The notes under the pieces: model-generated
Databases searched by the model: none
Told to the model about the DNA's origin: nothing
What the model saw: the letters and a program-made list of their open reading frames with translations, nothing else
Shown: positions 1 to 51,552 of the stretch, in pieces
Position numbering within the stretch: position 1 is the first letter of the stretch
How the letters are laid out: every line of letters starts with the position of its first letter
IMG/VR virus record: IMGVR_UViG_2537561965_000009
Source: a virus
Lineage: Duplodnaviria; Heunggongvirae; Uroviricota; Caudoviricetes
Strand: one strand, 5' to 3'
DNA length: 52,523 bases
Program-made: the position numbers and the translations under genes

Positions 1-1131
1 TCAAATGACCAGTTTTTTCCATTCCTTACCGCGTGCGTCGTTGTAAATATCGGTCATTTTTTGATTCGAATGGCCTAGCAAAATTTTGGTATCAACCCCC
101 TGCTCTCTGAACAATCGCTCTGATAAAGATCTCTGCTCATGGAAAGAGGGTGGGGTGCCATTAGCACGCCAGTTGTAATCCACAGAATCCCGGGCTTTTT
201 TAAATGCAACGGTTAATGTTGCTGGCTTAACCATCCCGCCGCGCTTAGCTGTCCCTTTCGCGTGATGGTGGTGCAATAGCCACGGACTAAGAACGCAATC
301 GCGGCAGGATGACACTACATCATCCAGGGTGAGATTTAATTTATCGCAACGCAGAGCCAGAGGGATGGCAATCCGGGTTCCTGTTTTTTGCTGTTCGACA
401 TGAAGATAACCATCCCGGATATCCGAAAATTGCATTTTGCAAATATCTGAAAGGCGCTGGCCTGTCATCAGTGCCAGCAGCATACCGCGCTGTAAAAAGT
501 AACCATCCTTTTCCGCTGCGTTATAAATCATCATCCACTCATCAAAAGTCAGTCGCTGTCTTGATATCCGCACCTGCGGTTTTTTTGCCGATTCTGCAGG
601 GTTAAAGCCTGGCGGGACATCGCCCGTTTGCTGAGCTTCCCGGAAAACATCGATCAGTACTTTCCTGAAAATTTGTCCCATTCTGTTATGTCCTCTGGCC
701 TTGTACTCTTCCAGTACTGATACCACATCTTTTACGGTTATGGCATCTAACGGTCTGGTGCCAAAACGTTCATCAAATACCCTGAGAGGGGCCGCTTTCT
801 GTTTCAGCGTGTTGAGTTTGATCTCGCCGTTTTCATATCTTTCCTGTTGAATTTTTCTGTAATTATTCAGAAAAATGGTAACGGTTGATGAACCGCCGGT
901 ATCACTAATAATTTTCTCCTGCAGACTGAGCATTTGTTCCATTTGCTGCCGGGCAAGACGGCTGTTCGCTTCTGCTGCAATAGTTTCTGCCAGTTTCTGG
1001 TCAATACTGCCGAGACCGTGATTTTTGCCTGTTATGGGATGCCTGTAACGCCAGTAAACTTTGTTATTTCTTTTGTCAAAATACGGAGATAATCCCGGAA
1101 CATCGGTTTTATATTTTCGCGGGCGCGCCAT
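1..1131 (-). CDS. int: phage integrase (tyrosine recombinase)
   Basis: 376-aa ORF with ATG at 1131 and stop at 1-3; leftmost prophage gene; its 5' end is overlapped by a small excisionase-like ORF. Confidence 0.85.
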   Translation of the reverse strand: MARPRKYKTDVPGLSPYFDKRNNKVYWRYRHPITGKNHGLGSIDQKLAETIAAEANSRLARQQMEQMLSLQEKIISDTGGSSTVTIFLNNYRKIQQERYENGEIKLNTLKQKAAPLRVFDERFGTRPLDAITVKDVVSVLEEYKARGHNRMGQIFRKVLIDVFREAQQTGDVPPGFNPAESAKKPQVRISRQRLTFDEWMMIYNAAEKDGYFLQRGMLLALMTGQRLSDICKMQFSDIRDGYLHVEQQKTGTRIAIPLALRCDKLNLTLDDVVSSCRDCVLSPWLLHHHHAKGTAKRGGMVKPATLTVAFKKARDSVDYNWRANGTPPSFHEQRSLSERLFREQGVDTKILLGHSNQKMTDIYNDARGKEWKKLVI

Positions 1132-1421: not shown

Positions 1422-3893
1422 TTAAAAATCAGCCTGATTCGGGATCAGTTTTTGCCAGATAACTGAAACGTATTTTGCCTGGTAACGGGCGTCATCAAGT
1501 GCATTATGGCGCTCACCTTCGAATGGAATAGCCGTTCTGGCATCGAAGTCTATGGCTTTCCCCAGCTCAACGATTGTGCGTACATCGCGATCGTTGTAGT
1601 AACGCCATGGGCAGGGGATCCCCTGCCGTTCGTATGAACGGCGCAAAATCGTGTTGTCGAAGTTGGCTCCATTTCCCCAGACCTGAACAAAAAATTCGCC
1701 GGAGTTTTCGTCGATAAATTCCCGCAATTGCAGCAGTGCATCATCTAACGGGATTTCATCGGTCAGAATGGCAGATTGCGCCTCCCGTGATTGCTTAAGC
1801 CACCATTTAATGGTGCCACGATCAATGACTCCGCCAGCAGTATCCATATCGATGGTCTTACTAAATTCCGGCCCCATATCTCCGGTTTGCGGATCGAAAA
1901 ATATTGCACCTATTGAGATAAGCGGGGCATCGGGATTTTTTCCCATGGTTTCAAGGTTGATCATCATGTGGTGCCACATTCTGCTGGTGGATGTGATAAC
2001 GTGATGACCGTTCATCGCAATTAAGGGATCTGCCGTCTCGCCAGTTTCACTATCGCTGGCGTGATCCTGAGCGCTACCAGCATTCTCCTTGTGTGGATGT
2101 TCAGCGCCTTCCATTTCCTTCGGATCATTTTCCTGAACTTCAACCTGATTCTCTTCATCGAATGTTTCCTGGTATGTTGCGTCGCCCATTACCGCGCCAC
2201 AATCAGGGCAGTTGCCACCACCGCTTTGACCGCAGGCGGTGCAGACTTTTTCCGGTTCCTGTTGCGCTACTGGCTCAGGTTGTTTCGTTTCTGGCTCGTT
2301 TTGTAACGCATTTGGGCTGTTTTGTTCCGCTTTCTGGCCGTTCTGTTCCGTTTCTTGTTGGTTCTGATTCACTGAATCGCGGGTTTCAATCCCCTTCACC
2401 CATTTCGGATCATTCGGGTCGCTAATCCCTGCAACAAATTCACCACGTGATACAGCAAGCAACTTATTGGCGTCAGGCTGGCTGATATTGGCTGCCTGCA
2501 TAATTTTGTTTACTTCGTCAGCGGTAACTTTTACCGGCTCTGGTTGTGCGATCGTGTCAGATGCACCAGTATTTTGTTGTGAACCTGAGTATGTACTGTT
2601 TTTGCGGGCGAAATATTCTTCTTTCGTGATTTCAGTAGCCCCGGCAGCCAGCGCCTTATCCAGACCAGAAAGTTTGTTTGCGCGACCGTATTTTTCGCCA
2701 TCCTTGTCGGTGAAGAGGAAGTAGAACGGCCCTTCACGCTCTACAGATGGTTCGACTTCCACTTTGCATTCGGTTTTTTCGTTGTCCGGAATTGCCGTTT
2801 CCACTGCATCAGTTTCTGGTACTGGCGACGAGAGAGTATCAGTTGCGCTCTGATTTCTTCCTTCATCTTCAAACACGCCCTTTGTAGTCAGGTATTCAGT
2901 AATGTATTTGTTCAGTGCCACAGGGTCTTTGTGAATGTCGATCGGACGTTCACGGACAAGGCCAAAAATAGTCTGGCGGTCGTAGCGAAGGGCATCAGGC
3001 TGTTTGCGCATTGATGCCGAGATACGCTTCCAGTCTTCGCGGTCGTTGTCGATAACTTCATTTTTTGCCCAGCGATGGATGCTGCCGTCAATGTTTCCGG
3101 CATCCACATCACCAGGCCAGAGAGCGTAGGCCAGTTCGTCATCCAGTGTTTTCCATGTCTGCTTGTATTCGCGATGAATGGCAGCAATGACCGGGCTGAT
3201 TTTTCCTGTTGAATTTTCACTGTGCTGTTGATTGGTTCTGGCGCGGGCGAGATCAACAACAGACGTGTATTTTCCGGTTTCCTTGCGTTCACCTTCGCGA
3301 CGTTTTTTCCAGATGCGCATCTCTGCCTGAATTTCGGGCCATTTGGCACCAGGCTTACATTTATGCTTAACCCACCCGATGGCATGCAGCTTAAGCTCCG
3401 GATACATGGCGTTAACTTCTGGCATTTTCATCAACGCTTCAACGATATGTCCGTCGAATGTTGCCATGTCTTCCTGCAACAATTCCTGTGCGCTAATAAC
3501 CATATCAACGGTGATGTTTTCACATGTGTCGAACTTAACCATGACAGCGTTCTGTACTTCAGGGGACAGCTTGTCAAAATTGACGTTCATCGGATCGGAT
3601 TCTGGTTCGACCGGAATAAAGGAAGCGGATTCCTCATCCCAGCGGTTTTCCTGCATATATTCAGCATCCCAGGAATCGAGGGCAGGGCGGGGTATACCGG
3701 GTTTATCCTCGCAGACAAGAAATTTATAAGCGCAGTCCTGAGCAGCCGGATAATGTTCCAGGAATTGCCAGTGAAATTTTGCGCGGGCGCGACGTTCATC
3801 ACCGGCTTCAATGGCAGTGGCTACAGCGACGGCACCTTCTTCCTTTATTGCCTGTTCGTCCGGAATGGCGGCGCAAATAAAGACTTTACTCAT
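1422..3893 (-). CDS. large prophage exonuclease (often annotated exodeoxyribonuclease VIII-like); C-terminal DnaQ-like 3'-5' exonuclease motifs
   Basis: 823-aa ORF, GAGG Shine-Dalgarno before ATG 3893; C-terminal domain has Exo II-like GNGANFDNTIL and Exo III-like HNALDDARYQA motifs; central Cys4 cluster CTACGQSGGGNCPDCG; acidic linker. Confidence 0.6.
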   Translation of the reverse strand: MSKVFICAAIPDEQAIKEEGAVAVATAIEAGDERRARAKFHWQFLEHYPAAQDCAYKFLVCEDKPGIPRPALDSWDAEYMQENRWDEESASFIPVEPESDPMNVNFDKLSPEVQNAVMVKFDTCENITVDMVISAQELLQEDMATFDGHIVEALMKMPEVNAMYPELKLHAIGWVKHKCKPGAKWPEIQAEMRIWKKRREGERKETGKYTSVVDLARARTNQQHSENSTGKISPVIAAIHREYKQTWKTLDDELAYALWPGDVDAGNIDGSIHRWAKNEVIDNDREDWKRISASMRKQPDALRYDRQTIFGLVRERPIDIHKDPVALNKYITEYLTTKGVFEDEGRNQSATDTLSSPVPETDAVETAIPDNEKTECKVEVEPSVEREGPFYFLFTDKDGEKYGRANKLSGLDKALAAGATEITKEEYFARKNSTYSGSQQNTGASDTIAQPEPVKVTADEVNKIMQAANISQPDANKLLAVSRGEFVAGISDPNDPKWVKGIETRDSVNQNQQETEQNGQKAEQNSPNALQNEPETKQPEPVAQQEPEKVCTACGQSGGGNCPDCGAVMGDATYQETFDEENQVEVQENDPKEMEGAEHPHKENAGSAQDHASDSETGETADPLIAMNGHHVITSTSRMWHHMMINLETMGKNPDAPLISIGAIFFDPQTGDMGPEFSKTIDMDTAGGVIDRGTIKWWLKQSREAQSAILTDEIPLDDALLQLREFIDENSGEFFVQVWGNGANFDNTILRRSYERQGIPCPWRYYNDRDVRTIVELGKAIDFDARTAIPFEGERHNALDDARYQAKYVSVIWQKLIPNQADF

Positions 3894-3988
3894 TTTGTTT
3901 TAACCTCATTACAGATTTCAGGGTGAACGAATCCCTGCCATTGCTGGCATTTTTAATCCGTTGGTATGGCGTTAATATGGCTGGCGGG

Positions 3989-4177
3989 TTATCCAGCCGG
4001 TATTTCGTTATTCAGGTTCAGCGATACTTTTTTTAACGGGAGGCATTCACCGGGGATTTTTTGTTCGTCCCTTACCTGAATGCAGGATGACTTACTGTCA
4101 TAAATTCCGGTAATCACATTTTGTGGCTCACCCGTTATAAGAAAAACGGTCATCACCAGTGCAAATGCTGAAGTCAC
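3989..4177 (-). CDS. ydfD: small YdfD-like prophage protein
   Basis: 62-aa ORF (GTG start overlapping dicB stop as GTGA); hydrophobic N-terminus; same position and size as ydfD downstream of dicB in Qin-type prophages. Confidence 0.5.
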   Translation of the reverse strand: MTSAFALVMTVFLITGEPQNVITGIYDSKSSCIQVRDEQKIPGECLPLKKVSLNLNNEIPAG

Positions 4178-4362
4178 TGCTGTTCTCCGATAATACCAAG
4201 TTCAAGAAGGGCAATTCTGGAAAGTATGGAATTATCATTGAGAAGATAAGGTTCATATTTTCTCATCTTAATGGCATCTTCCGTAAACTCCCGGTTACTG
4301 AGCAGAACACCAATATCAAAACAACCTTCAGACGTATTAACGTTTGGTAATAACGTTTCCAT
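4174..4362 (-). CDS. dicB: cell-division inhibitor DicB-like protein
   Basis: 62-aa product METLLPNVNTSEGCFDIGV... recognised as DicB-like from memory; GAGG SD before ATG 4362; lies downstream of the DicF sRNA sequence. Confidence 0.65.
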   Translation of the reverse strand: METLLPNVNTSEGCFDIGVLLSNREFTEDAIKMRKYEPYLLNDNSILSRIALLELGIIGEQQ

Positions 4363-4521
4363 TATCGCGTCCTCAACAATGAATTTTGTGATGCGGTGCC
4401 TGGTGCCTCCAGGTGACGTTAACCAGTTAACAATTAACGCCGGATACAGAGAATCCACCCATAACACTGTTTTTGGTTTTAACTGTTCCGCGTGCGCTCA
4501 GCCGCATTCACCACATCACAA

Positions 4522-4579
4522 AATTCACTTTAAAAAGGGCGGCAGAGCAGTCACGGAGTAAAACTGATACCGCCAAACG
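4522..4579 (-). ncRNA. dicF: DicF small regulatory RNA
   Basis: Minus-strand sequence UUUCUGGUGACGUUUGGCGGUAUCAGUUUUACUCCGUGACUGCUCUGCCGCCC followed by a U-run matches the DicF sRNA as I recall it; located between ydfC-like and dicB-like genes as in Qin. Confidence 0.6.
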
Positions 4580-4927
4580 TCACCAGAAAATTGATAACAG
4601 AGGGCGTTGCAGCGGAGTTGTCACTTAAGCGTATGGTCAACCTGACAACCCGGTGTCCTCAACGGAGGAAGGAATAACCCCGCCATACTTACCGCCGCGC
4701 CATTTCGCGGAGTGCCACAACCGGAAGCGCACGGTCGAACTAAATTTAACGACACCGTACAGAGAGACCAATTTCGCCGTGCGCTTTCGCTTTATGCCCT
4801 GACTTTTCAGGGACATATCCTTTCAGTAAACTGTCAGTGCCGGATGTTCACCCGTGTCCGGCGCACGCACTCCACCTGACCCGTGGAGAACTCCTTAATT
4901 ACCAACCTTAGCTTCGTTGGTTAGCTA

Positions 4928-5146
4928 TTAACGCGGGTATGTAACCATTCTGGCAATGCTTAATGCCGCTGCTTTTTCCAGCCTGGTGATATCCTGCTCC
5001 AGAGCGGACAGATTTTCAGCCTGCTTAGTCCTGGCTTCATTGGCCCATTTCAGATCCTGCGCTGCATTAATTTTCTGGCGCATCCACTCATAAAGTTCAT
5101 CATCGGTATAGTCTGGCGCGATGATGACGGGTTCTCGTTTCTGCAT
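4928..5146 (-). CDS. ydfC: YdfC-like small prophage protein
   Basis: 72-aa ORF, same size and operon position as ydfC in the Qin dicB operon. Confidence 0.5.
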   Translation of the reverse strand: MQKREPVIIAPDYTDDELYEWMRQKINAAQDLKWANEARTKQAENLSALEQDITRLEKAAALSIARMVTYPR

Positions 5147-5175
5147 ACTGATTCCTCGCGGTGCTGCTTCGCTTA

Positions 5176-5304
5176 TCAGCCGTTAGATTTTGCCGAGCTG
5201 GAAAGCGCCTGTTTAAACTCACTGAAGCTGAGAGCTTCTTCGCCTTCGGCAAGGCCTTCGAAGTATTCTTCGTAAGCCTTTTCCATGATTGTGTCGAAAT
5301 CCAT
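5176..5304 (-). CDS. ydfB: YdfB-like small acidic protein
   Basis: 42-aa ORF MDFDTIMEKAYEEYFEGLAEGEEALSFSEFKQALSSSAKSNG found by manual translation (below the 60-aa cutoff of the ORF track); size and position match ydfB. Confidence 0.45.
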   Translation of the reverse strand: MDFDTIMEKAYEEYFEGLAEGEEALSFSEFKQALSSSAKSNG

Positions 5305-5305
5305 A

Positions 5306-5461
5306 TCACTCACCTGAGTTTCTTTCCAGCCAGCGACGGGCACCATTTTCGGTTTTAAACGTTTTGCTTTTGGTATACGTCATTGCGGTGAACGTGCCGT
5401 CCTGGTTGGGGAACACGCCACATACCAGAGATTCGCTGTTGCCAAGATCGATAGTATCCAT
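5306..5461 (-). CDS. ydfA: YdfA-like (DUF1391-type) small protein
   Basis: 51-aa ORF MDTIDLGNSESLVCGVFPNQDGTFTAMTYTKSKTF... with GAGG SD; first gene of the leftward early operon. Confidence 0.5.
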   Translation of the reverse strand: MDTIDLGNSESLVCGVFPNQDGTFTAMTYTKSKTFKTENGARRWLERNSGE

Positions 5462-5627
5462 GCTGACCTCATTTCCCCTTAACGCCGGGGGAGCGGAACA
5501 AAAACCTGCTGCATAGTTATTAAAGTTGAACCCTGCCGTCATGTTCTTACGCCTCGGGCTGGCTACTTAACCCCTGACCACTGCCTGGTAACTCGAGGTA
5601 TTGCCCTGTATTGTGTGGGACGGGATG

Positions 5628-5635
5628 GGTTGGTA
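5628..5635. repeat. target-site duplication GGTTGGTA (left copy)
   Basis: 8-bp direct repeat identical to 8335-8342, immediately flanking the IS66-family element. Confidence 0.8.
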
Positions 5636-5688
5636 GTAACCGGCTCATTTAAACCGTCTGGTCTGTTTCCTCCGGCTCTACAAAAATA

Positions 5689-6366
5689 ATGTCCATCATT
5701 TTTAATGGACACTATCGTATGAAACACCGGACCTGGATCACTGAAGCTTTACGTCTTCACTTTGAAGAACATTTACCCCGGGTTGTGGCCGGGCGTCGCC
5801 TGGGTGTACCAAAATCAACAGTTTGTAGTATGTTCGTGCGCTTTCGGAGAGCTGGCCTTTCGTGGCCTTTGCCCGCAGGCATGTCGGAGCAGGAACTTGA
5901 TGCCTGCCTTTACGGACAATTTTCCACGGTACCAGTCGTACGTCCTGAAAGCACCGTTATATCCGAAGCCCCCGTGGTAAAAAAACGTCCCCGGCGGCCC
6001 AACTTCCCTTATGAGTTTAAAATCGCCTTAGTGGAGCAGTCACTGCAGCCCGGAGCCTGTGTGGCGCAGATCGCCCGGGAAAACGGAATCAACGATAACC
6101 TGCTCTTCAACTGGCGCCATCAATACCGGAAAGGTGGCCTGCTGCCTTCCGGAAAAAATATGCCGGCACTGCTTCCCGTGACGTTAACGCCGGAGCCGGA
6201 TAATAAAATCCCGGCCCCCGCACAGGAACCAGAGCAGATAAATACACCGTCCGACAGTCTGTGTTGTGAGCTGGTTCTGCCGGCCGGAACTCTCAGGCTT
6301 AAAGGTAAACTGACGCCGGCGTTATTACAGACACTTATCCGCGAAATAAAAGGGAGCAGCCACTGA
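5689..6366 (+). CDS. IS66-family accessory protein TnpA (HTH)
   Basis: 225-aa ORF with IS3/IS66 orfA-like HTH segment FKIALVEQSLQPGACVAQIARENGINDNLLFNWRHQYRKGG; stop overlaps start of tnpB. Confidence 0.7.
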   Translation: MSIIFNGHYRMKHRTWITEALRLHFEEHLPRVVAGRRLGVPKSTVCSMFVRFRRAGLSWPLPAGMSEQELDACLYGQFSTVPVVRPESTVISEAPVVKKRPRRPNFPYEFKIALVEQSLQPGACVAQIARENGINDNLLFNWRHQYRKGGLLPSGKNMPALLPVTLTPEPDNKIPAPAQEPEQINTPSDSLCCELVLPAGTLRLKGKLTPALLQTLIREIKGSSH

Positions 6367-6713
6367 TGATATCTCTCCCTGCAGGTTCGCGTATCTGGCT
6401 GGTTGCAGGTATCACCGATATGCGAAATGGCTTTAACGGCCTGGCATCAAAAGTTCAGAACGTCCTGAAGGATGACCCGTTCTCCGGACACCTGTTCATC
6501 TTCCGCGGACGCCGGGGTGACCAGATAAAAGTGTTGTGGGCTGACAGTGACGGACTGTGCCTCTTCACCAAACGCCTGGAGCGGGGCCGCTTCGTCTGGC
6601 CAGTCACCCGTGACGGCAAGGTGCACCTTACTCCGGCTCAGTTATCCATGCTTCTTGAAGGTATCAACTGGAAGCACCCGAAACGAACGGAACGCGCTGG
6701 AATCCGCATATAA
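6366..6713 (+). CDS. IS66-family TnpB
   Basis: 115-aa ORF MISLPAGSRIWLVAGITDMRNGFNGL... characteristic of IS66 orfB. Confidence 0.8.
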   Translation: MISLPAGSRIWLVAGITDMRNGFNGLASKVQNVLKDDPFSGHLFIFRGRRGDQIKVLWADSDGLCLFTKRLERGRFVWPVTRDGKVHLTPAQLSMLLEGINWKHPKRTERAGIRI

Positions 6714-6732
6714 CCCGTTGTAAAGTGAGGAT

Positions 6733-8304
6733 ATGGACACCTCACTTGCTCATGAGAACGCCCGCCTGCGGGCACTGTTGCAGACGCAACAGGACACCAT
6801 CCGCCAGATGGCCGAATATAACCGCCTGCTCTCACTGCGGGTGGCGGCTTATGCTTCCGAAATCAACCGGCTGAAGGCGCTGGTTGCGAAACTGCAACGT
6901 ATGCAGTTCGGTAAAAGCTCAGAAAAACTTCGTGCAAAAACCGAACGGCAGATACAGGAAGCACAGGAGCGAATCAGCGCACTTCAGGAAGAAATGGCGG
7001 AAACGCTGGGTGAGCAATATGACCCGGTACTGCCATCCGCCCTGCGCCAGTCTTCAGCCCGTAAACCGTTACCGGCCTCACTTCCCCGTGAAACCCGGGT
7101 TATCCGGCCGGAAGAGGAATGCTGTCCTGCCTGTGGTGGTGAACTCAGTTCTCTGGGATGTGATGTGTCAGAGCAACTGGAGCTTATCAGCAGCGCCTTT
7201 AAGGTTATCGAAACACAACGTCCGAAACAGGCCTGTTGCCGGTGCGACCATATCGTGCAGGCACCAGTACCTTCAAAACCCATTGCACGCAGTTATGCCG
7301 GAGCGGGGCTTCTGGCCCATGTTGTCACCGGGAAATATGCAGACCATCTGCCGTTATACCGCCAGTCAGAAATATACCGTCGTCAGGGAGTGGAGCTGAG
7401 CCGTGCCACACTGGGGCGCTGGACAGGTGCTGTTGCTGAACTGCTGGAGCCGCTGTATGACGTCCTGCGCCAGTATGTGCTGATGCCCGGTAAAGTCCAT
7501 GCTGATGATATCCCCGTCCCGGTCCAGGAGCCGGGCAGCGGTAAAACCCGGACAGCCCGGCTGTGGGTCTACGTCCGTGATGACCGTAACGCCGGTTCAC
7601 AGATGCCCCCGGCGGTCTGGTTCGCGTACAGTCCGGACCGGAAAGGTATCCATCCACAAAATCACCTGGCCGGTTACAGCGGTGTGCTTCAGGCCGATGC
7701 TTACGGTGGTTACCGGGCGTTATACGAATCCGGCAGAATAACGGAAGCCGCGTGTATGGCTCATGCCCGGAGAAAAATCCACGATGTGCATGCAAGAGCG
7801 CCCACCTACATCACCACGGAAGCCCTGCAGCGTATCGGTGAACTGTATGCCATCGAGGCAGAGGTCCGGGGCTGTTCAGCAGAACAGCGTCTGGCGGCAA
7901 GAAAAGCCAGAGCCGCGCCACTGATGCAGTCACTGTATGACTGGATACAGCAACAGATGAAAACACTGTCGCGTCACTCAGATACGGCAAAAGCGTTCGC
8001 ATACCTGCTGAAACAGTGGGATGCACTGAACGTGTACTGCAGTAATGGCTGGGTGGAAATCGACAACAACATCGCAGAGAACGCCTTACGGGGAGTGGCC
8101 GTAGGCCGGAAAAACTGGATGTTCGCGGGTTCCGACAGCGGTGGTGAACATGCGGCGGTGTTGTACTCGCTGATCGGCACATGCCGTCTGAACAATGTGG
8201 AGCCAGAAAAGTGGCTGCGTTACGTCATTGAACATATCCAGGACTGGCCGGCAAACCGGGTACGCGATCTGTTGCCCTGGAAAGTTGATCTGAGCTCTCA
8301 GTAA
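6733..8304 (+). CDS. IS66-family transposase TnpC
   Basis: 523-aa ORF with N-terminal coiled-coil and Cys-rich CPACG...CCRC region typical of IS66 transposases. Confidence 0.85.
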
Positions 8305-42041: not shown

Positions 42042-45000
42042 ATGGGTAAAGGCAGCAGTAAGGGGCATACCCCGCGCGAAGCGAAGGACAACCTGAAGTC
42101 CACGCAGCTGCTGAGTGTGATCGATGCCATCAGCGAAGGGCCGGTTGAAGGTCCGGTGGATGGATTAAAAAGCGTGCTGCTGAACAGTACGCCAGTGCTG
42201 GACACTGAGGGGAATACCAACATCTCCGGTGTCACGGTGGTGTTCCGTGCCGGTGAGCAGGAGCAGACACCGCCGGAGGGGTTTGAATCCTCCGGCTCCG
42301 AGACGGTGCTGGGTACGGAAGTGAAATATGACACGCCGATCACCCGCACCATTACGTCTGCAAACATCGACCGACTGCGCTTTACCTTCGGTGTGCAGGC
42401 ACTGGTGGAAACCACCTCAAAGGGGGACCGGAATCCGTCGGAAGTTCGCCTGCTGGTTCAGATACAGCGTAATGGTGGCTGGGTGACGGAAAAAGACATC
42501 ACCATTAAGGGCAAAACCACCTCGCAGTATCTGGCCTCGGTGGTGGTGGATAATCTGCCGCCGCGCCCGTTCAACATCCGGATGCGCAGGATGACGCCGG
42601 ACAGCACCACAGACCAGCTGCAGAACAAAACGCTCTGGTCGTCATACACCGAAATCATCGATGTGAAACAGTGCTACCCGAACACGGCACTGGTCGGCGT
42701 ACAGGTGGATTCGGAGCAGTTCGGCAGCCAGCAGGTGAGCCGTAATTATCATCTTCGCGGGCGTATTCTGCAGGTGCCGTCGAACTATAACCCGCAGACG
42801 CGGCAATACAGCGGTATCTGGGACGGAACGTTTAAGCCAGCATACAGCAACAACATGGCCTGGTGTCTGTGGGATATGCTGACCCACCCGCGCTACGGCA
42901 TGGGTAAACGTCTTGGTGCGGCAGATGTGGATAAATGGGCGCTGTATGTCATCGGCCAGTGTTGCGACCAGTCGGTGCCGGACGGTTTTGGCGGCACGGA
43001 GCCGCGCATCACCTGTAATGCGTACCTGACCACACAGCGTAAGGCGTGGGATGTTCTCAGTGATTTCTGCTCGGCGATGCGCTGTATGCCGGTATGGAAC
43101 GGGCAGACGCTGACGTTCGTGCAGGACCGACCATCAGATAAGGTGTGGACCTATAACCGCAGTAATGTGGTGATGCCGGATGATGGCGCGCCGTTCCGCT
43201 ACAGCTTCAGCGCCCTGAAGGACCGCCATAATGCCGTTGAGGTGAGCTGGATTGACCCGAACAACGGCTGGGAGACGGCGACAGAGCTTGTTGAAGATAC
43301 GCAGGCCATTGCCCGTTACGGTCGTAATGTCACGAAGATGGATGCCTTTGGCTGTACCAGCCGGGGGCAGGCACACCGCGCCGGGCTGTGGCTGATTAAA
43401 ACGGAACTGCTGGAGACGCAGACCGTGGATTTCAGCGTGGGTGCTGAAGGGCTTCGCCATGTACCGGGCGATGTCATTGAAATCTGCGATGATGACTATG
43501 CCGGTATCAGCACCGGTGGTCGCGTGCTGGCGGTAAACAGCCAGACCCGGACGTTGACGCTCGACCGTGAAATCACGCTGCCATCCTCCGGTACCACGCT
43601 GATAAGCCTGGTTGACGGAAGTGGTAATCCGGTCAGCGTGGAGGTTCAGTCCGTCACCGACGGCGTGAAGGTGAAAGTGAACCGGGTTCCTGACGGCGTT
43701 GCAGAATACAGCGTGTGGGGGCTGAAGTTGCCGACGTTGCGTCAGCGCCTGTTCCGCTGTGTGAGTATCCGTGAGAACGATGACGGCACGTATGCCATCA
43801 CTGCCGTGCAGCATGTACCGGAAAAAGAAGCCATCGTGGATAACGGGGCGCACTTTGACGGCGACCAGAGCGGCACGGTGAATGGTGTCACGCCGCCAGC
43901 GGTGCAGCACCTGACCGCCGAAGTCACCGCAGACAGTGGGGAATATCAGGTGCTGGCCCGCTGGGACACGCCGAAGGTGGTGAAGGGCGTGAGCTTCCTG
44001 CTTCGCCTGACCGTGGCAGCGGATGACGGCAGTGAGCGGCTGGTCAGCACGGCCCGGACGACGGAAACCACATACCGCTTCACGCAACTGGCGCTGGGGC
44101 GTTACATGCTGACGGTCCGGGCGGTAAATGCGTGGGAGCTGCAGGGCGATCCGGCATCGGTATCGTTCCGGATTGCCGCACCGGCAGCGCCGTCTCGGAT
44201 TGAGCTGACACCGGGCTATTTTCAGATAACCGCCACGCCACATCTTGCGGTTTATGACCCGACGGTACAGTTTGAGTTCTGGTTCTCGGAAAAACGGATT
44301 GCGGATATCAGGCAGGTTGAAACCACAGCCCGCTATCTTGGTACGGCGCTGTACTGGATAGCCGCCAGTATCAATATCAAACCGGGCCATGATTATTACT
44401 TTTATATCCGCAGTGTGAACACCGTTGGCAAATCGGCATTCGTGGAGGCCGTCGGTCGGGCGAGCGATGATGCGGAAGGTTACCTGGATTTTTTCAAAGG
44501 CAAGATAACCGAATCCCATCTTGGTAAAGAGCTGCTGGAAAAAGTCGACCTGACGGAGGATAACGCCAGCAAACTGGAGCAGTTTTCGAAAGAGTGGAAG
44601 GATGCTAACGATAAGTGGAATGCCATGTGGGGCGTCAAAATTGAGCAGACCAAAGACGGTAAACATTATGTCGCGGGTATTGGCCTCAGCATGGAGGACA
44701 CGGAGGAAGGCAAACTGAGCCAGTTTCTGGTTGCCGCCAATCGTATCGCGTTTATTGACCCGGCAAACGGGAATGAAACGCCGATGTTTGTGGCGCAGGG
44801 CAACCAGATATTCATGAACGACGTGTTCCTGAAGCGCCTGACGGCCCCCACCATTACCAGCGGTGGAAATCCACCGGCATTTTCCCTGACACCGGACGGA
44901 AAGCTGACCGCTAAAAATGCGGATATCAGTGGCAGTGTGAATGCGAACGCCGGGACGCTCAACAATGTCACGGTAAATGAAAACTGTACGATTAAGGGCA

Positions 45001-45455
45001 TGCTGGAGGCGACTCAGGTCAGAGGTGACTTCGTTAAAGCTGTATCCAAATCATTCCCGAAACAGGCTGGTACGTGGGGTAATACGGAAACACCAAACGG
45101 GACGGTTACAGTCACCATCAGCGATGATCATAACTTTGACCGTCAAATCATTATTCCGCCCATTATCTTTAACGGAATAGCGTATAGCGATCCGGGAAGT
45201 GGTAATAACCCGGGAGGTACAAGATACACGGGTTATGGTTTTGAAGTTCGCAAAAACGGTGTATTAATCGCATCCAGAGAAACTAAAGGGGCCATTCCCG
45301 GTAGCTACAGTGCGGTTATTGATATGCCGAGTGGCAGGGGAAGCGTCACTCTGGAGTTTAAGGTTTTCCATAAAGGCAATCAGCGGGCAGGTAATATCAC
45401 CGACTGTACGGTGATTGTGACCAAAAAAGCGGCTTCAGGCATCAGTATTCGTTGA
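42042..45455 (+). CDS. J: central tail fibre / host specificity protein J
   Basis: 1137-aa ORF; lambda J-like over most of its length, with the last roughly 150 residues divergent from lambda J as I recall it. Confidence 0.9.
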
Positions 45456-45477
45456 AATATTTATAACCCCAATAAAT

Positions 45478-45501
45478 GGCGTCAGGAATGACGCCTTTTT
45501 T
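45478..45501 (+). terminator. rho-independent terminator after J
   Basis: GGCGTCA-GGAA-TGACGCC hairpin followed by TTTTTT. Confidence 0.65.
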
Positions 45502-45525
45502 ATTGCAGAAAAGCGAGAGGTAATT

Positions 45526-46125
45526 ATGCGTAAAGTTTGTGCAGCCATTTTGTCCGCAGCCATTTGTCTGGCCGTATCCGGTGCGCCTGCATGGGCGTCT
45601 GAACATCAGTCCACGCTGAGCGCGGGGTATCTTCATGCCCGGACCAACGTTCCCGGCAGTGATGATCTGAACGGGATTAACGTGAAATACCGTTATGAGT
45701 TTACGGATACGCTGGGGCTGGTGACGTCATTCAGCTATGCAGGAGACAAGAATCGCCAGCTGACCCATTACAGCGATACCCGCTGGCATGAAGATTCCGT
45801 TCGTAACCGCTGGTTCAGCGTAATGGCGGGGCCGTCTGTGCGCGTGAATGAATGGTTCAGCGCGTATGCGATGGCGGGTGTGGCTTACAGCCGTGTGTCG
45901 ACTTTCTCCGGGGATTATCTCCGCGTAACTGACAACAAGGGGAAAACGCACGACGTGCTGACCGGAAGTGATGACGGTCGCCACAGCAACACGTCTCTGG
46001 CGTGGGGAGCTGGCGTGCAGTTTAACCCGACCGAATCCGTGGCCATTGATATTGCTTATGAAGGCTCCGGCAGTGGCGACTGGCGCACTGACGGTTTCAT
46101 CGTGGGTGTCGGTTATAAGTTCTGA
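45526..46125 (+). CDS. lom: Lom-family outer-membrane beta-barrel protein (Ail/Lom/PagC-like)
   Basis: 199-aa ORF with signal peptide and a C-terminal ...DIAYEGSGSGDWRTDGFIVGVGYKF beta-barrel ending in Phe; GAGAGG SD. Confidence 0.85.
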   Translation: MRKVCAAILSAAICLAVSGAPAWASEHQSTLSAGYLHARTNVPGSDDLNGINVKYRYEFTDTLGLVTSFSYAGDKNRQLTHYSDTRWHEDSVRNRWFSVMAGPSVRVNEWFSAYAMAGVAYSRVSTFSGDYLRVTDNKGKTHDVLTGSDDGRHSNTSLAWGAGVQFNPTESVAIDIAYEGSGSGDWRTDGFIVGVGYKF

Positions 46126-46153
46126 TTAGCCAGGTAACACAGTGTTATGACAG

Positions 46154-46178
46154 CCCGCCGGTTCAGGCGGGCTTTTTT
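46154..46178 (+). terminator. rho-independent terminator after lom
   Basis: GCCCGCC-GTTCA-GGCGGGC hairpin followed by TTTTTT. Confidence 0.7.
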
Positions 46179-46189
46179 GTGGGGTGAAT

Positions 46190-49100
46190 ATGGCAGTAAA
46201 GATTTCAGGTGTACTGAAAGACGGCACAGGAAAACCGGTACAGAACTGCACAATCCAGCTGAAAGCAAAACGTAACAGCACCACGGTGGTGGTGAACACG
46301 CTGGCCTCAGAAAATCCGGATGAAGCCGGGCGTTACAGCATGGACGTTGAGTACGGTCAGTACAGCGTTATTCTGTTGGTGGAAGGATTCCCGCCGTCAC
46401 ATGCCGGGACCATCACCGTGTATGAAGATTCCCGACCCGGTACGCTGAATGATTTTCTCGGTGCCATGACGGAGGATGATGCCCGTCCTGAGGCACTGCG
46501 CCGTTTTGAACTGATGGTGGAAGAGGTGGCGCGTAACGCGTCCGCGGTGGCACAGAACACGGCAGCCGCGAAGAAGTCAGCCAGCGATGCCGGCACATCA
46601 GCCCGTGAGGCGGCAACCCATGCGACTGATGCTGCAGGCTCAGCACGCGCAGCCAGCACGTCAGCCGGACAGGCTGCTTCGTCGGCTCAGTCAGCGTCTT
46701 CCAGCGCAGGAACGGCATCAACAAAGGCCACTGAAGCATTAAAAAGTGCTGCCGCTGCAGAGTCCTCAAAAAGCGCGGCGGCTACCAGTGCCGGTGCGGC
46801 GAAAACGTCAGAAACGAATGCGGCAGCGTCACAACAATCAGCAGCCACTTCTGCATCCACCGCGACTACGAAAGCGTCAGAAGCAGCCACTTCAGCACGG
46901 GATGCGTCGGCTTCAAAAGAGGCGGCAAAATCATCAGAAACGAACGCAGCCTCGAGCGCCAGCAGCGCAGCTTCCTCGGCAACGGCGGCAGCAAATTCTG
47001 CGAAGGCGGCAAAAACGTCTGAGACAAACGCCAGGTCTTCTGAAACGGCAGCGGAACAGAGTGCCTCAGCTGCGGCAGGCTCAAAAACAGCGGCTGCGTC
47101 GTCTGCCAGTGCAGCGTCAACAAGTGCCGGGCAGGCCTCAGCCAGTGCCACCGCCGCCGGAAAATCGGCAGAAAGCGCCGCATCGTCTGCTTCAACAGCC
47201 ACAACGAAGGCTGGCGAAGCCACTGAACAGGCCAGCGCAGCAGCGAGGTCTGCTTCCGCAGCGAAGACATCCGAAACGAACGCGAAAGCGTCGGAAACCA
47301 GCGCAGAATCCTCAAAAACGGCTGCCGCATCGTCCGCCAGTTCGGCGGCGTCATCGGCATCATCTGCGTCTGCTTCAAAAGATGAGGCGACCAGACAAGC
47401 GTCAGCAGCGAAGAGCAGCGCCACGACGGCATCCACGAAGGCAACAGAGGCGGCAGGCAGTGCGACGGCAGCATCTCAGAGCAAAACTACTGCTGAATCC
47501 GCTGCGACCCGTGCGGAAGCTGCTGCTGATCGTGCTGAAGAGATTGCCGGTGCAGTTGCGATGGAAGACGCAAGCCTTACAACTAAAGGTGTTGTGAAAC
47601 TTAGCAGTGCTGTTGATAGCACCAGTGAATCGCTGGCCGCAACGCCAAAAGCAGTTAAAGCAGCCAATGACAATGCGAATAGCAGGGTGCCATCTAACCG
47701 AAAAGTTAACGGAAAAGCACTGACTGCGGATATAACATTAACGCCGAAAGATATTGGTACTTTAAATTCAGTAACGATGTCTTTCTCTGGCGGGGCTGGG
47801 TGGTTCAAACTGGCTACGGTTACCATGCCACAAGCGAGTTCCATCGTTTACATCGCATTGATTGGTGGCGCTGGTTACAACGTCGGTTCCCCACATCAGG
47901 CAGGCATTTCAGAACTGGTTCTACGAGCAGGCAATGGAAACCCCAAAGGAATTACCGGGGCTTTGTGGAAGCGTACAGCCGTCGGATTAACGAATTTCGC
48001 CTGGATCAACACATCCGGCGATACATATGATATTTACGTTGAGATTGGCAATTATGCGACGAGTGTAAATATCCATTGGGATTGTACTGCAAATGCGTCA
48101 GTTTCTGTTTATACCTCGCCAACATATTCAGCGAGTAAGCCTTCCAGCGTTACCTATGGTGTTGTTTATACGATGTATAGCTCACATCAGAAACCTACAC
48201 CATCAGATATTGGAGCACTGCCAACAACCGGAGGAACAGTTTCAGGTCCGTTGTCTGTTACAGGTGGATTAACTGGTTCATTGAATGGTAATGCAAGTAC
48301 AGCCACGAAATTGCAGACGGCAAGATCTATCGGTGGAGTTGTTTTCGACGGTTCTGCAAATATTAACCTTCCAGGTGTAAACACTACGGGTAATCAGAAC
48401 ACCACTGGTAATGCTGCAACTGCTACAAAACTTCAGACTGCAAGAAAAATATCCGGTGTTCCATTTGATGGTTCTACTGATATCACTTTAACCGCCGCGC
48501 ATGTGGCTGCTTTTGCCAGAAGGGCAACGGATACATATGCCGATGCGGATGGTGGCGTTCCCTGGAATGCCGAATCAGGCGCTTACAATGTCACCCGCTC
48601 TGGCTACACCTATATTCTGGTTAACTTCTATACCGGAGTCGGAAGTTGCCGGACCCTGCAGATGAAGGCGCATTACAGAAATGGAGGTCTGTTCTACCGT
48701 TCCTCAAGAGATGGCTATGGTTTTGAGGAAGGCTGGGCAGAAGTTTATACCTCGAAAAATCTTCCACCAGAAAGCTACCCAGTTGGCGCACCAATCCCGT
48801 GGCCATCAGATACCGTTCCGTCTGGTTATGCCCTGATGCAGGGGCAGACTTTTGACAAATCTGCTTACCCGAAACTTGCAGCGGCTTATCCGTCAGGCGT
48901 GATCCCTGATATGCGTGGCTGGACGATTAAGGGCAAGCCCGCCAGTGGTCGTGCCGTATTGTCTCAGGAACAGGATGGCATTAAATCGCATACCCACAGC
49001 GCCAGCGCATCCAGTACGGATTTGGGGACGAAAACCACATCGTCGTTTGATTACGGCACTAAATCCACGAATAACACCGGGGCGCATACCCATAGTATTA

Positions 49101-49468
49101 GCGGGACCGCAAATAGTGCCGGTGCGCACCAACACAAGAGTTCCGGTGCATTTGGTGGCACGAACACGAGCATTTTCCCTAATGGTTATACCGCGATTTC
49201 AAATCCAAGCGCGGGGATTATGAGCACAACAAGCGGTAGTGGCCAGACTCGTAATGCAGGGAAGACATCATCAGATGGTGCTCATACCCACTCGCTGTCC
49301 GGCACAGCAGCATCTGCAGGTGCACATGCACATACTGTCGGTATTGGTGCGCATACGCACTCGGTTGCGATTGGTTCACATGGACACACCATCACCGTTA
49401 ACGCTGCTGGTAACGCGGAAAACACCGTCAAAAACATCGCATTTAACTATATTGTGAGGCTTGCATAA
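46190..49468 (+). CDS. stf: side tail fibre protein Stf (long form with Ala/Ser-rich repeat array and His-rich distal tip)
   Basis: About 1092 aa from ATG 46190; N-terminus [26 protein letters not shown] (lambda Stf-like); long A/S/T-rich repeats containing KTSETNA units; C-terminal HxH-rich segment [20 protein letters not shown]...[18 protein letters not shown] typical of fibre tips. Confidence 0.85.
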
Positions 49469-50049
49469 TGGCATTCAGAATGAGTGAACAACCACGGACC
49501 ATAAAAATTTATAATCTGCTGTCCGGAACTAATGAATTTATTGGTGAAGGTGATGCATATATTCCGCCTCATACAGGTCTGCCAGCAAACAGTACCGACA
49601 TTGCACCGCCAGATATTCCAGCTGGCTTCGTGGCTGTTTTCAACAGTGATGAGTCATCGTGGCATCTCGTTGAAGATCATCGGGGTAAAACGGTTTATGA
49701 CGTGGCTTCCGGCGACGCGTTATTTATTTCTGAACTCGGCTCATTACCGGAAAATGTCACCTGGTTATCCCCGGAAGGGGAGTTTCAGAAGTGGAACGGC
49801 ACAGCCTGGGTGAAAGATGCAGAAGCAGAAAAACTATTCCGGATCCGGGAGGCGGAAGAAACAAAAAACAGCCTGATGCAGGCAGCGAATGAGCATATTG
49901 CGCCACTTCAGGATGCTGTAGATCTGGAGATCGCAACGGAGGAAGAAACTTCGTTGCTGGAAGTCTGGAAAAAGTATCGGGTGTTGCTGAACCGTGTTAA
50001 TACAACAACTGCTCCGGATATTGAATGGCCAGTAGCACCTATAGGGTAA
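49468..50049 (+). CDS. tfa: tail fibre assembly protein Tfa
   Basis: 193-aa ORF, ATG overlapping the stf stop. Confidence 0.85.
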
Positions 50050-50908
50050 ATTCGTAATGATTACCTAAATACGTTATTCTTTTGTTCAAAAAGTGATTTT
50101 GCTATAGGTAGGGAGTATGTTCTTGGATTAAGAATAAAAAATCGCCATGAAAGAGCTTCATGGCGAGTACATAAACGTACAAAATGTGATGAAAGTAGAG
50201 TGGCGTAAGCCACTATATTAAGATGTGACAATAGCGAACAAAAGTAAATAATATTTTATGGACGTTTAATTGTTAATTATAAAAACTAGAGTGCCCGATA
50301 TTGTTTATCTTGCTTTAAAATAATGTACTCAAACCAAATTTTTGAGCTAAAAGCTCAAATAATATAAATGCAATGATAATGTTTAATAAGACAATTAGCT
50401 TGCTTTGTATTTTCATTTCGGAATACTGTTAAGTAACTTTGATGACCCTAACAATAGATCGGAATTTTCTTAGAGTCAATGGTCACTGTTTTTGTTTGCA
50501 AAGCAAATGTTTTGGTGGTTATAAGTTGTCTTAATATAGTCACGCATGCAACTTGCTCCATGCGGAGATTAAAGATTGGAATATAACGCGAAGATGGAAT
50601 TAAATTACATTTGCAATAATCAATTTATTATTACTCAATAATTACCGATATTATTATTGTAAATTAATCATTAGAGTGCAAAAAGAAATGTAACGGCAAA
50701 ATAAGAGGACGATAGCTGAGAAAAAAGCGTGCTTTCCCAATCTGGGGCAAATCACGTCTGAATGACACCTGAAAACAGGTAGTAGCCTCAAGAAGGCTTG
50801 GAATATTCTTCTTTAATGTTATGTAATTCATTGATTTTTCGTGTACGATTTTAAGACATTTATTCCAAGAAAAATTTTTAACTCTTTGATTTTTCGACTC
50901 TGTATCAT

Positions 50909-50970
50909 CGGTCTCGAAAACCGGAGTAGGGGCAACTCTACCGGGGGTTCAAATCCCCCTCTCTCCGCCA
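50909..50970 (+). other. 3' fragment of a tRNA-Ser gene (serU-like), putative attR core of the prophage
   Basis: CGGTCTCGAAAACCGGAGTAGGGGCAACTCTACCGGGGGTTCAAATCCCCCTCTCTCCGCCA matches the anticodon arm through 3' CCA end of a seryl tRNA with a long variable arm as recalled; the 5' half is absent. Confidence 0.65.
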
Positions 50971-51552
50971 CTTTATCAATGACTTATCTCCCGACTTCCC
51001 GCCTTGCTTTTCCTAAACAGAACAATCGTAGAATATTCTTGAAGGGTTAGATCGTCACTGTTTTCTGTTCGATACTGTGACATTCAGCACTTGATTCGCT
51101 ATGGATCTGACAGGAAGGTTTTGAGCGAAAATTTGCAGTTATTCAGTCGTTTTCTTATCGGTCACCATTATTCTTTTAGACATTGATCCTACAAAGCTGC
51201 CGCAAAGTTGGTGGTAGGAACTGAAGTTGCGTAGAGAAGGGGTCAATACCCGGAGGCAAACATGGGCTGGCAAAAGTGTAGCGGTATTAGGCGCAGCTAT
51301 TTAGCCTAGTTATGTTTTATGAAAACTTGATATCATATAAGTGTCTTACTTATTGGCTGTAAATAAGTTTTTCCTAAGGAATTGTTTCTTGAGTATCATT
51401 TGTAACTGTAACGGAATTTATAATCCTTTGCTTTATTGTTACGGTATTTTTTATCACACCCTATTTTTAGTGGTTTTTTATACTGAAGTTTGGCAAAGTG
51501 AACTTTATATACATATACTTCATCCTGGTTTCAGTTAAATTGGGTGGATGAT

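Follow-up and report, generated by a model that had tools for sequence, protein, structure and literature searches.

The gene analysed here, which lies in a 52,523-nt window of viral DNA, is a common, catalogued lambda-type side tail fibre gene (stf) of a lambdoid E. coli prophage. The Ala/Ser-rich region of its product reads as a coiled-coil shaft with strict heptad register, not as a slippage-prone repeat, and sequence comparison indicates that this region is the constant part of the fibre among close relatives, with the variation sitting distal to it. We hold with roughly 90% confidence that the product is a trimeric side tail fibre of the StfR/lambda type and that its array represents 49 heptads of a rigid proximal coiled-coil shaft. 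Both the protein and its family were already known: an identical protein is public in NCBI (P0001), the family is well studied, and the structure of the homologous lambda fibre was resolved in 2025.

The stf gene and its neighbours

An intact open reading frame runs on the plus strand from 46184 (GTG) or 46190 (ATG) to 49468. Translation from the ATG, which is preceded by a GGGG Shine-Dalgarno-like run, gives a protein of 1092 aa (MAVKISG...) with the same start as lambda Stf and PDB 9e7m, in agreement with the length of about 1092 aa in the original prediction. The GTG is an unlikely start, as it sits directly past the T-run of the lom terminator. That prediction had placed the fibre at 46560-49468; the end was correct, whereas it is the repeat region, not the gene, that begins at 46560. 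At least 80% of the stf gene was carried by 370 of 5426 complete E. coli genomes. The coordinates of the features are collected in Table 1.

The proposed identity as a side tail fibre was confirmed by domain matches and by synteny. Stf residues 1-94 were near-identical to the lambda Stf collar (E=1.7e-51), and the PF08400 match (E=1.5e-71) reached ~aa 134. In lambda, residues 1-91 of gpStfN form a 12-copy collar at the gpV/gpM junction (PMC12617516). The gene order J (42042-45455), lom (45526-46125), stf and tfa is that of lambda, with a matching Pfam family for each gene, and the ATG of tfa shares one base with the TAA stop of stf (TAATG). No invertase or invertible alternative tip was found 3' of tfa, where 50049-51544 contains no ORF of at least 80 aa, and ARAGORN found no tRNA at the right end. 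An Rfam scan of the right end returned weak, sub-threshold matches only.

Table 1. Features of the stf region, with positions in the window.
Feature	Residues	Nucleotides	Strand	Basis
stf, side tail fibre gene	1-1092	46190..49468	+	1092 aa + TAA stop; ORF, Pfam, PDB and NCBI matches
N-terminal tail-attachment (collar) domain	1-94	46190..46471	+	PDB 9e7m_Ta, PF08400
Ala/Ser heptad array	112-457	46523..47560	+	periodicity, register, AF2 helix, colinearity with lambda Stf
105-aa block (15 heptads)	308-412	47111..47425	+	present here and in StfR-type fibres, absent from Ur-lambda Stf
Conserved post-array motif	454-505	47549..47704	+	common to phage Mu tail fibre gpS
Mid/distal shaft modules	506-860	47705..48769	+	mosaic; differs among relatives
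T4 gp37-type receptor-binding needle, including Collar domain PF07484	861-1092	48770..49465	+	2XGF, PF07484
Seven HxH motifs	934-1066	48989..49387	+	first His at aa 934, 966, 980, 1032, 1046, 1055, 1064
Hypervariable tip subdomain between third and fourth HxH (49 residues)	983-1031	49136..49282	+	alignment of relatives
tfa, tail fibre assembly chaperone	193 aa	49468..50049	+	PF02413, E=2.5e-43

The Ala/Ser-rich region as a coiled-coil shaft

The repeat array that had been noted in the protein was found at the level of heptads. It follows the consensus x-x-A-x-x-S-A for 49.4 heptads (49 of them whole), with zero register breaks across 346 aa, and its identity autocorrelation, judged by 500 shuffles, reached z = 8.4-11.1 at all lags divisible by 7 up to 56. 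Ala occupied column 3 in 47 of 49 heptads, Ser column 6 in 37 of 49 and Ala column 7 in 34 of 49, and the heptads KTSETNA and ASSASSA each occurred three times. Ala and Ser at core positions are unusual for a canonical coiled coil; our a/d assignment is putative.

An AF2 model of aa 91-510 was helical at 381 of 420 residues, covering aa 98-498. This was a single-chain run without an alignment (mean pLDDT 70, range 44-88; pTM 0.27) in which the helix turns back on itself at two breaks of low confidence to give a bundle, and it was used for secondary structure only. For Ur-lambda, the AF3 prediction of a folded full-length fibre disagreed with the authors' own cryo-ET (PMC12617516). The array is colinear with the lambda Stf segment (residues 102-393) assigned as a trimeric proximal coiled coil by cryo-EM/ET and AF3, of which cryo-EM shows the proximal part as a trimeric bundle (PMC12617516). 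Periodicity, predicted helix and colinearity with lambda together indicate that the array makes up the core of the proximal shaft, an alpha-helical coiled coil, and the lambda homologue suggests that the shaft is trimeric. The post-array motif matched phage Mu gpS (8ju3_A and 5yvq_A residues 105-156, E about 4e-8) and aligned with lambda Stf ~aa 349-400, where the proximal coiled coil ends and the hinge begins.

A region of this composition could also be a disordered low-complexity linker, or a non-helical spacer of beta or collagen-like structure. The compositional bias is extreme (Ala 38%, Ser 23%, Thr 12%; 73% together), aromatic or large hydrophobic core residues are missing, and the single-chain pLDDT is just 44-88, as such a linker would lead one to expect. 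However, the 7-residue register is strict along the entire array with no indel in 11 relatives, the length of the indel relative to lambda is divisible by 7, there is no Pro, and Gly makes up only 3%. Given also the predicted helicity and the trimeric bundle seen in the homologous lambda segment, we consider a linker or non-helical spacer highly improbable and favour the coiled-coil shaft.

The array DNA itself had been described as tandemly repetitive, and the tandem-repeat analysis contradicted this. TRF (minimum score 30, 45000-51000) found no array, only three two-copy rows of 19-23 nt, and a further repeat search (find_repeats) returned only dispersed matches of 14-37 nt at 60-94% identity. 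The longest exact direct repeat was 12 nt, within the range of 10-16 nt obtained by synonymous-codon shuffling. Nucleotide identity at lags of 21k was 0.442, compared with 0.439 +/- 0.003 in the same null, showing that the 21-nt periodicity is fully accounted for by the protein sequence. The 21-nt units had a mean pairwise identity of 44%, so that the near-identical tandem units of a contingency-type repeat locus are not present in the array. Similarity between heptads at the DNA level was neither above nor below the synonymous-codon shuffle and gave no sign of a recent duplication, of concerted evolution or of selection to limit repetition. The array is old and diverged in its DNA, and hence genetically stable.

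As originally predicted, the array is covered by many spurious ORFs in other frames, 100-283 aa long. The longer ones, at 46746-47597 (+, 283 aa), 46687-47436 (-, 249 aa) and 46866-47474 (-, 202 aa), have a length that might suggest a real overlapping gene, but they owe their existence to a shortage of stop codons. Three other frames contain just 1-3 in the array, compared with 12-21 in the following 1038 nt, and this depletion follows from the GCN/TCN/AGC/ACN/AAA/GAA codon use of the array. Of the substitutions relative to 11 relatives, 75% (600/805) fell at the third codon position of stf, as is typical of DNA that codes in one frame only, and codon differences were synonymous to nonsynonymous at 527:196. 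The products would moreover be low-complexity strings rich in R/Q/P or A/D/F. The chance that any of these ORFs is a gene is negligible, and they should stay unannotated.

Array length and the location of variation

We asked how the length of the array behaves among relatives, because repeat-number variation had been put forward as a source of variation in fibre length or host range. In 11 of 11 Stf proteins from E. coli prophages (942-1176 aa), the array occupied aa 112-457 with 0 gaps, at a nucleotide identity of 87-96%. At least 80% of the 1038-nt array was present in 3591 of 5426 E. coli genomes, and the sampled high-coverage genome matches were each a single ungapped piece of the same span, bar one 1-nt difference. 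This invariance was seen in the 11 full sequences and in a 60-row spread sample out of 4248 matching records. The comparison of copy number that had been named as the way to refute the idea thus gave an invariant, ungapped array, and copy-number polymorphism among closely related alleles, as at a contingency-type locus, was not observed among the 11 relatives or the sampled matches.

The differences among close relatives in length and specificity mapped instead distal to aa 457, to swapped mid-fibre modules and the tip loop. Identity over aa 506-860 ranged from 0 to 100%, with large gaps. In this part a ~29-aa motif with FDGS occurs twice (aa 699-727 and 739-767; nt 48284-48490), and aa 773-866 form a domain resembling Mu gpS (8ju3_A residues 323-415, E=1.1e-18). 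One and the same 346-aa array was joined to at least five distinct distal module sets, which indicates that specificity tracks the distal part. In engineered lambda Stf chimeras, host range was altered by swapping everything past R393 or S528, that is, after the coiled coil (PMC11338833), and lambda stf recombines with the stf/tfa genes of Rac and Qin by relaxed homologous recombination (PMC3945230).

Over larger distances the length of the array does change. In Ur-lambda Stf the array is 75-83% identical where it aligns, and a single in-frame block of 105 aa, or exactly 15 heptads (query aa 308-412), is missing; the junction falls within short SSA(S/T) heptad homology. An origin of this block by recent internal duplication was rejected, its best in-register neighbour identity of 55% lying within the array background. 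Two further fibres, one from the 108-kb phage Cyrano and one encoded on plasmid pRM13322 (annotation: P1 S homologue), share 304 aa of this array and the mid-fibre after it (94% nucleotide identity to query nt 560-2263 for Cyrano), joined to an unrelated N-terminal attachment domain (MWYREGTITF...) and a different C-terminal part. They lack 6 heptads at the proximal end of the array, and the different N-terminus on the same array shows that junctions can fall inside it. Across representatives of the wider PF08400 family, array lengths of 0-346 aa indicate that shaft length is evolvable over longer timescales.

These junctions and length differences are what a copy-number-variable tandem repeat would predict, in which slippage or unequal recombination tunes fibre length or host range in close prophages. 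Yet the array DNA holds no tandem repeat, its length is fixed in the relatives and sampled genomes, and the shorter lambda-type junction is rare, with no more than 97 genomes carrying it, all but one at >=99% identity. The pairing of one array with several distal module sets also speaks against it. For close relatives the copy-number hypothesis is largely refuted, and we regard it as very unlikely. Similarly, the description of the array as expanded holds relative to lambda only, by 15 heptads, and does not hold for the E. coli relatives, where the long form prevails. On the coiled-coil reading, diversity among close relatives would arise from exchange of modules distal to the array and of the tip loop rather than from changes in repeat number.

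A more speculative reading, to which we give rather low odds, is that the length of the proximal shaft is a selected ruler and that the fibre of lambda, 15 heptads shorter, is a derived oddity of its lineage. Lambdoid prophages of E. coli are nearly fixed for the form of 49 heptads, whatever their distal receptor-binding modules; arrays in the wider family have very different lengths, as described above, and the sole exactly mapped indel, that relative to lambda, consists of whole heptads. If this were so, selection would act on how far the fibre extends compared with the central J fibre, or with the thickness of O-antigen or capsule.

The fibre tip and comparison with known fibres

The multiple HxH motifs predicted in the C-terminal tip were found to be seven, and all align with the seven motifs of the T4 gp37 needle (2xgf_A; E=1.8e-83 for aa 861-1092; PF07484 E=6.2e-12). 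They were kept in 12 of 12 relatives. Since the T4 needle contains seven coordinated iron atoms (PMC6957217), the His-rich tip is probably metal-binding as well, as the original prediction had suggested. The subdomain between the third and fourth HxH varies in sequence and length among relatives, with near-invariant flanks, and takes the place of residues 932-959 in T4 gp37, which bear the LPS/OmpC contact residues (PMC6957217); it is likely to be the receptor-contact surface. An identical loop was found only in phage ev099, with 98.9% identity in mEp332 and at most 56% in all others. The literature on mEp332, on lambdoid and ECOR side fibres and on StfR yielded no receptor data for this tip allele. 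Host-range determinants of the fibre are thus to be sought in the modules past aa 457, and most clearly in this loop.

By analogy with the homologues, aa 1-94 would dock the fibre onto the tail tip and be followed by a short linker. The heptad array with its flanking helix (~aa 98-498) would act as a spacer that keeps the distal part away from the tail. Counted at 0.148 nm per residue, the array of 346 aa would span ~51 nm, ~15.5 nm more than that of lambda with its 15 heptads fewer. A hinge, beta-structured shaft modules and the gp37-type needle would follow in this order. Seven metal ions (iron in T4), each held by the HxH of all three chains, may stabilise the needle, whose small hypervariable subdomain would touch the receptor reversibly. 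Tfa, the product of the overlapping downstream gene, presumably chaperones folding of the tip.

The closest known group comprises StfR of the Rac prophage of E. coli K-12 and many E. coli alleles annotated as 'prophage tail fiber N-terminal domain-containing protein'. StfR (1120 aa) has an N-terminal domain that is 99% identical and an array of the same 346-aa length (94-100% identity to aa 412, 86% over aa 413-457), and shares the gp37-type tip with 7 HxH and the lom-stf-tfa context. Its mid-fibre module (aa 521-700), in contrast, is only 24% identical, and its hypervariable tip loop has another sequence and length.

Ur-lambda Stf (774 aa; PDB 9e7m/9mgh; PMC12617516) has the same collar, linker, heptad coiled coil, post-array motif, gp37-like tip and Tfa, and forms a homotrimer with four fibres per virion (PMC12617516). 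Besides the 15-heptad block, it lacks most of the mid-fibre modules (query aa 521-860), and there are 8 HxH and an additional SFDYGTK unit in its needle. The tip loop of lambda also differs from the one found here; lambda binds OmpC.

The likeness to T4 gp37 is confined to the collar and needle, the remaining fibre being unrelated, and the chaperone is Tfa where T4 has gp38/gp57A. The C-terminal 30 residues of gp37 are nearly identical to the tip described here. The segment between the third and fourth HxH, by contrast, is ~16 residues longer than in T4 (alignment gaps) and unrelated in sequence, so that the T4 receptor-contact residues (I933, N937, G938, G940-G943, K945, S947, Y949, I951, Y953) are not conserved. 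Their absence bears on receptor specificity and not on membership of the fold. A conserved scaffold with a variable tip is the layout already used in chimeric lambda fibres for DNA delivery.

A heptad-repeat shaft encoded without DNA tandem repeats

The original prediction placed an Ala/Ser-rich repeat in Stf, and this protein repeat is genuine, with a signal far beyond chance. The array (aa 112-457, nt 46523-47560) consists of 38% Ala, 23% Ser and 12% Thr, lacks Cys, Phe, Met, Pro, Trp and Tyr, and contains KTSETNA and ASSASSA three times each. Identity autocorrelation, performed on a segment wider than the array (aa 105-462 in ORF numbering from the GTG), showed peaks at each multiple of 7 and at no other lag (z 8.4-11.1 against 500 shuffles). 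A Viterbi parse that allowed register shifts returned a single 346-aa segment of 49.4 heptads with zero shifts. In this register the consensus is x-x-A-x-x-S-A, with Ala in column 3 in 47/49 heptads, Ser in column 6 in 37/49 and Ala in column 7 in 34/49. Heptad periodicity of this kind is a hallmark of alpha-helical coiled coils. AF2 modeling of aa 91-510 as a single chain gave 381/420 helical residues, and the chain folded back at two low-confidence breaks, which we treated as a monomer artefact.

In Ur-lambda Stf, residues 1-91 form the collar domain, present in twelve copies round the gpV/gpM junction, followed by a linker (residues 92-101), the proximal coiled coil of the trimeric fibre (residues 102-393), a hinge (residues 394-422), and then the distal domains and the OmpC-binding tip (PMC12617516). 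The array is colinear with this coiled coil in the alignment, and therefore the Ala/Ser array is the proximal shaft, with an expected length of ~51 nm at 0.148 nm per residue.

The DNA was also thought to be itself tandemly repetitive, which did not hold. TRF reported no tandem array over the region at a minimum score of 30, a repeat search returned only 14-37-nt matches (60-94% identity), mostly spaced by multiples of 21 nt, and the 21-nt units shared a mean pairwise identity of 44%. Exact direct repeats within the 1038-nt array reached at most 12 nt, compared with a maximum of 10-16 nt in synonymous-codon shuffles that kept the protein, and nucleotide identity at 21k lags was 0.442, compared with 0.439 +/- 0.003 in the shuffles. 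Since this null matches the observed identity, the protein periodicity accounts for all of the nucleotide periodicity. A substrate for slippage is absent from the array DNA. The G+C content of the array DNA (46500-47550) was 58-63%, compared with 43-50% in the remaining stf, with an AT skew of +0.24 to +0.42, and both are explained by the Ala/Ser/Thr/Lys/Glu codon set.

The many spurious alternative-frame ORFs expected over the array were indeed present. They arise because stops are scarce, with only 1-3 in each of three alternative frames compared with 12-21 in the following 1038 nt. Against 11 relatives, third codon positions of the stf frame took 600/805 differences, and synonymous and nonsynonymous codon changes stood at 527:196; across the array, coding constraint acts on the stf frame only.

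Array length among relatives

Repeat-number variation had been proposed as a source of fibre-length or host-range diversity. For comparison we took Ur-lambda and 11 E. coli prophage stf genes sampled along the similarity ranking. The Stf proteins of these 11 relatives measured 942-1176 aa in total, and all length differences were distal to aa 457; the array lay at aa 112-457 in 11/11 with zero gaps, at 87-96% nucleotide identity. Searched alone against 5426 complete E. coli genomes, the 1038-nt array matched 4115, and its coverage was ≥80% in 3591. Among 60 rows spread from top to bottom of the ranking, all high-coverage matches were single pieces whose span equaled the query span, with one exception (NZ_CP027454.1 2029134-2030112, E. 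coli 2014C-4423; 979 instead of 980 nt). This 1-nt indel would frameshift the stf copy, like the well-known stf frameshift carried by laboratory lambda. Thus, array length appears not to be polymorphic among close relatives, and the proposed diversity is unsupported there; the defining features of a copy-number-variable repeat locus were not found. Constant repeat number with gap-free alignment, the outcome named beforehand as refuting the proposal, is what close relatives show.

The array is 'expanded' relative to lambda only, the long form otherwise being the norm. Ur-lambda lacks one contiguous 105-aa block of exactly 15 heptads (window Stf aa 308-412), and the lambda-type junction lies within short SSA(S/T) homology. 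It occurred in only 97 genomes, 96/97 at ≥99% identity, which we took to be lambda itself. A recent duplication of the block was rejected on comparison with the rest of the array.

Among 50%-identity representatives with the N-terminal domain, array length ranged from 0 to 346 aa, 346 being the longest seen, and the arrays were joined to Collar/gp37-type, Phage_fiber_2 or S74 chaperone distal modules. The fibre of the 108-kb phage Cyrano (L014 1957-5982) combines an unrelated N-terminus with 304 aa of the array and the mid-fibre (query nt 560-2263, 94% nucleotide identity), as does that of plasmid pRM13322 (L015 2297-6454); both are annotated as P1 S homologues. Lambdoid prophages share the shaft module with large phage- or plasmid-borne elements, and its length is thus evolvable via rare in-register recombination. 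In E. coli strain 204 (L013 3168-6947), the PGAP annotation has two features, an stf pseudogene marked as truncated (3168-4145) and a 'pyocin knob domain-containing S74 family peptidase' gene (4197-6947). Both features are in one frame, and translation is stop-free over 3168-4300; this is probably one continuous gene with an Stf N-terminus, at least 215 aa of heptads and an S74-chaperone fibre.

Gene identity and surroundings

The side tail fibre assignment was confirmed by PF08400, by the match of aa 1-94 to the lambda side-fibre collar domain (cryo-EM structure 9e7m, E=1.7e-51) and by the J-lom-stf-tfa neighbours; all defining features tested for a lambda-type Stf were found. The lambda-type integrase at the window start indicates a lambdoid prophage.

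Features of the window
Feature	Coordinates	Strand	Basis or remarks
Integrase, lambda-type	1-1131	-	Arm-DNA-binding and Phage_integrase domains; left end
823-aa protein	1422-3893	-	C-terminal Rv2179c-like 3'-5' exoribonuclease domain; adjoins integrase
J	42042-45455		Seven J-specific Pfam families
lom	45526-46125		Between J and stf
stf	46190-49468	+	PF08400 N-terminal domain, Collar domain
tfa	49468-50049		PF02413
AraC-family regulator, 250 aa	51544-52296	+	HTH_AraC, HTH_18; right end, past AT-rich stretch

The stf ORF opens at 46184, and translation probably begins with the ATG at 46190 (MAVKISG...), yielding the ~1092 aa originally predicted. A GGGG run lies upstream of this ATG, and the same N-terminal residues are found in lambda Stf and in PDB chain 9e7m_Ta. 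The alternative GTG (46184) lies directly 3' of the T-run of a terminator-like hairpin after lom, which argues for the ATG. Position 46560, given as the start of the feature, marks that of the repeat region, as the ORF and the PF08400 domain begin upstream. The stf stop overlaps the tfa start (TAATG). Terminator-like GC hairpins with T-runs flank lom on both sides (45478-45495, after J; 46152-46173, before stf), which makes lom resemble a self-contained insert, or 'moron'.

Downstream of tfa, G+C falls to 29-33% (50100-50850; no ORF above 69 aa), and ARAGORN found no complete tRNA. Weak sub-threshold Rfam matches occur at 50916-50967 (-) and 50942-50959 (+), the latter to the tmRNA 3' end. These matches resemble part of a tRNA- or tmRNA-like 3' end, possibly the prophage attachment-site boundary; the AraC-family regulator gene may belong to the host or be cargo of the prophage.

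Distal modules and comparison with known fibres

Both stf and its product are already known: NCBI lists an identical protein on 28 contigs (P0001), and at least 80% of the gene occurs in 370 complete genomes. Judged by sequence, it is a mosaic sibling of StfR of the Rac prophage. Across aa 458-860, segment identities to the relatives range from 0 to 100%, and gaps reach 160 residues, which shows module swapping. Lambda stf is known to recombine with Rac and Qin (PMC3945230), and engineered fibres carry new receptor-binding parts attached after R393 or S528 of lambda Stf (PMC11338833); the swapping fits both.

The predicted metal-binding tip with multiple HxH motifs is supported by homology. 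Residues 861-1092 match the T4 gp37 needle (2XGF, E=1.8e-83), and all defining features tested for a gp37-type needle were found. Seven HxH motifs (first His at aa 934, 966, 980, 1032, 1046, 1055 and 1064; nt 48989-49387) pair one-to-one with those of T4 and are kept in all relatives; in the T4 needle, His of three chains coordinate seven iron atoms (PMC6957217). Between motifs 3 and 4, a 49-residue loop (aa 983-1031, nt 49136-49282) varies in sequence and length among relatives, and its flanks are almost invariant. It is 100% identical in phage ev099 and 98.9% in mEp332, with other phage records at ≤56%. The loop corresponds in position to residues 932-959 of T4 gp37, the tip subdomain with the LPS and OmpC contact residues; none of these contact residues is conserved in the loop, so the receptor is not transferable from T4 or lambda. 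The Ur-lambda needle has 8 HxH motifs, compared with 7 here, and one extra SFDYGTKTTG unit in its preceding, N-terminal part. Thus, repeat number does differ within this fibre family, but the difference lies in the iron-binding needle and not in the Ala/Ser array.
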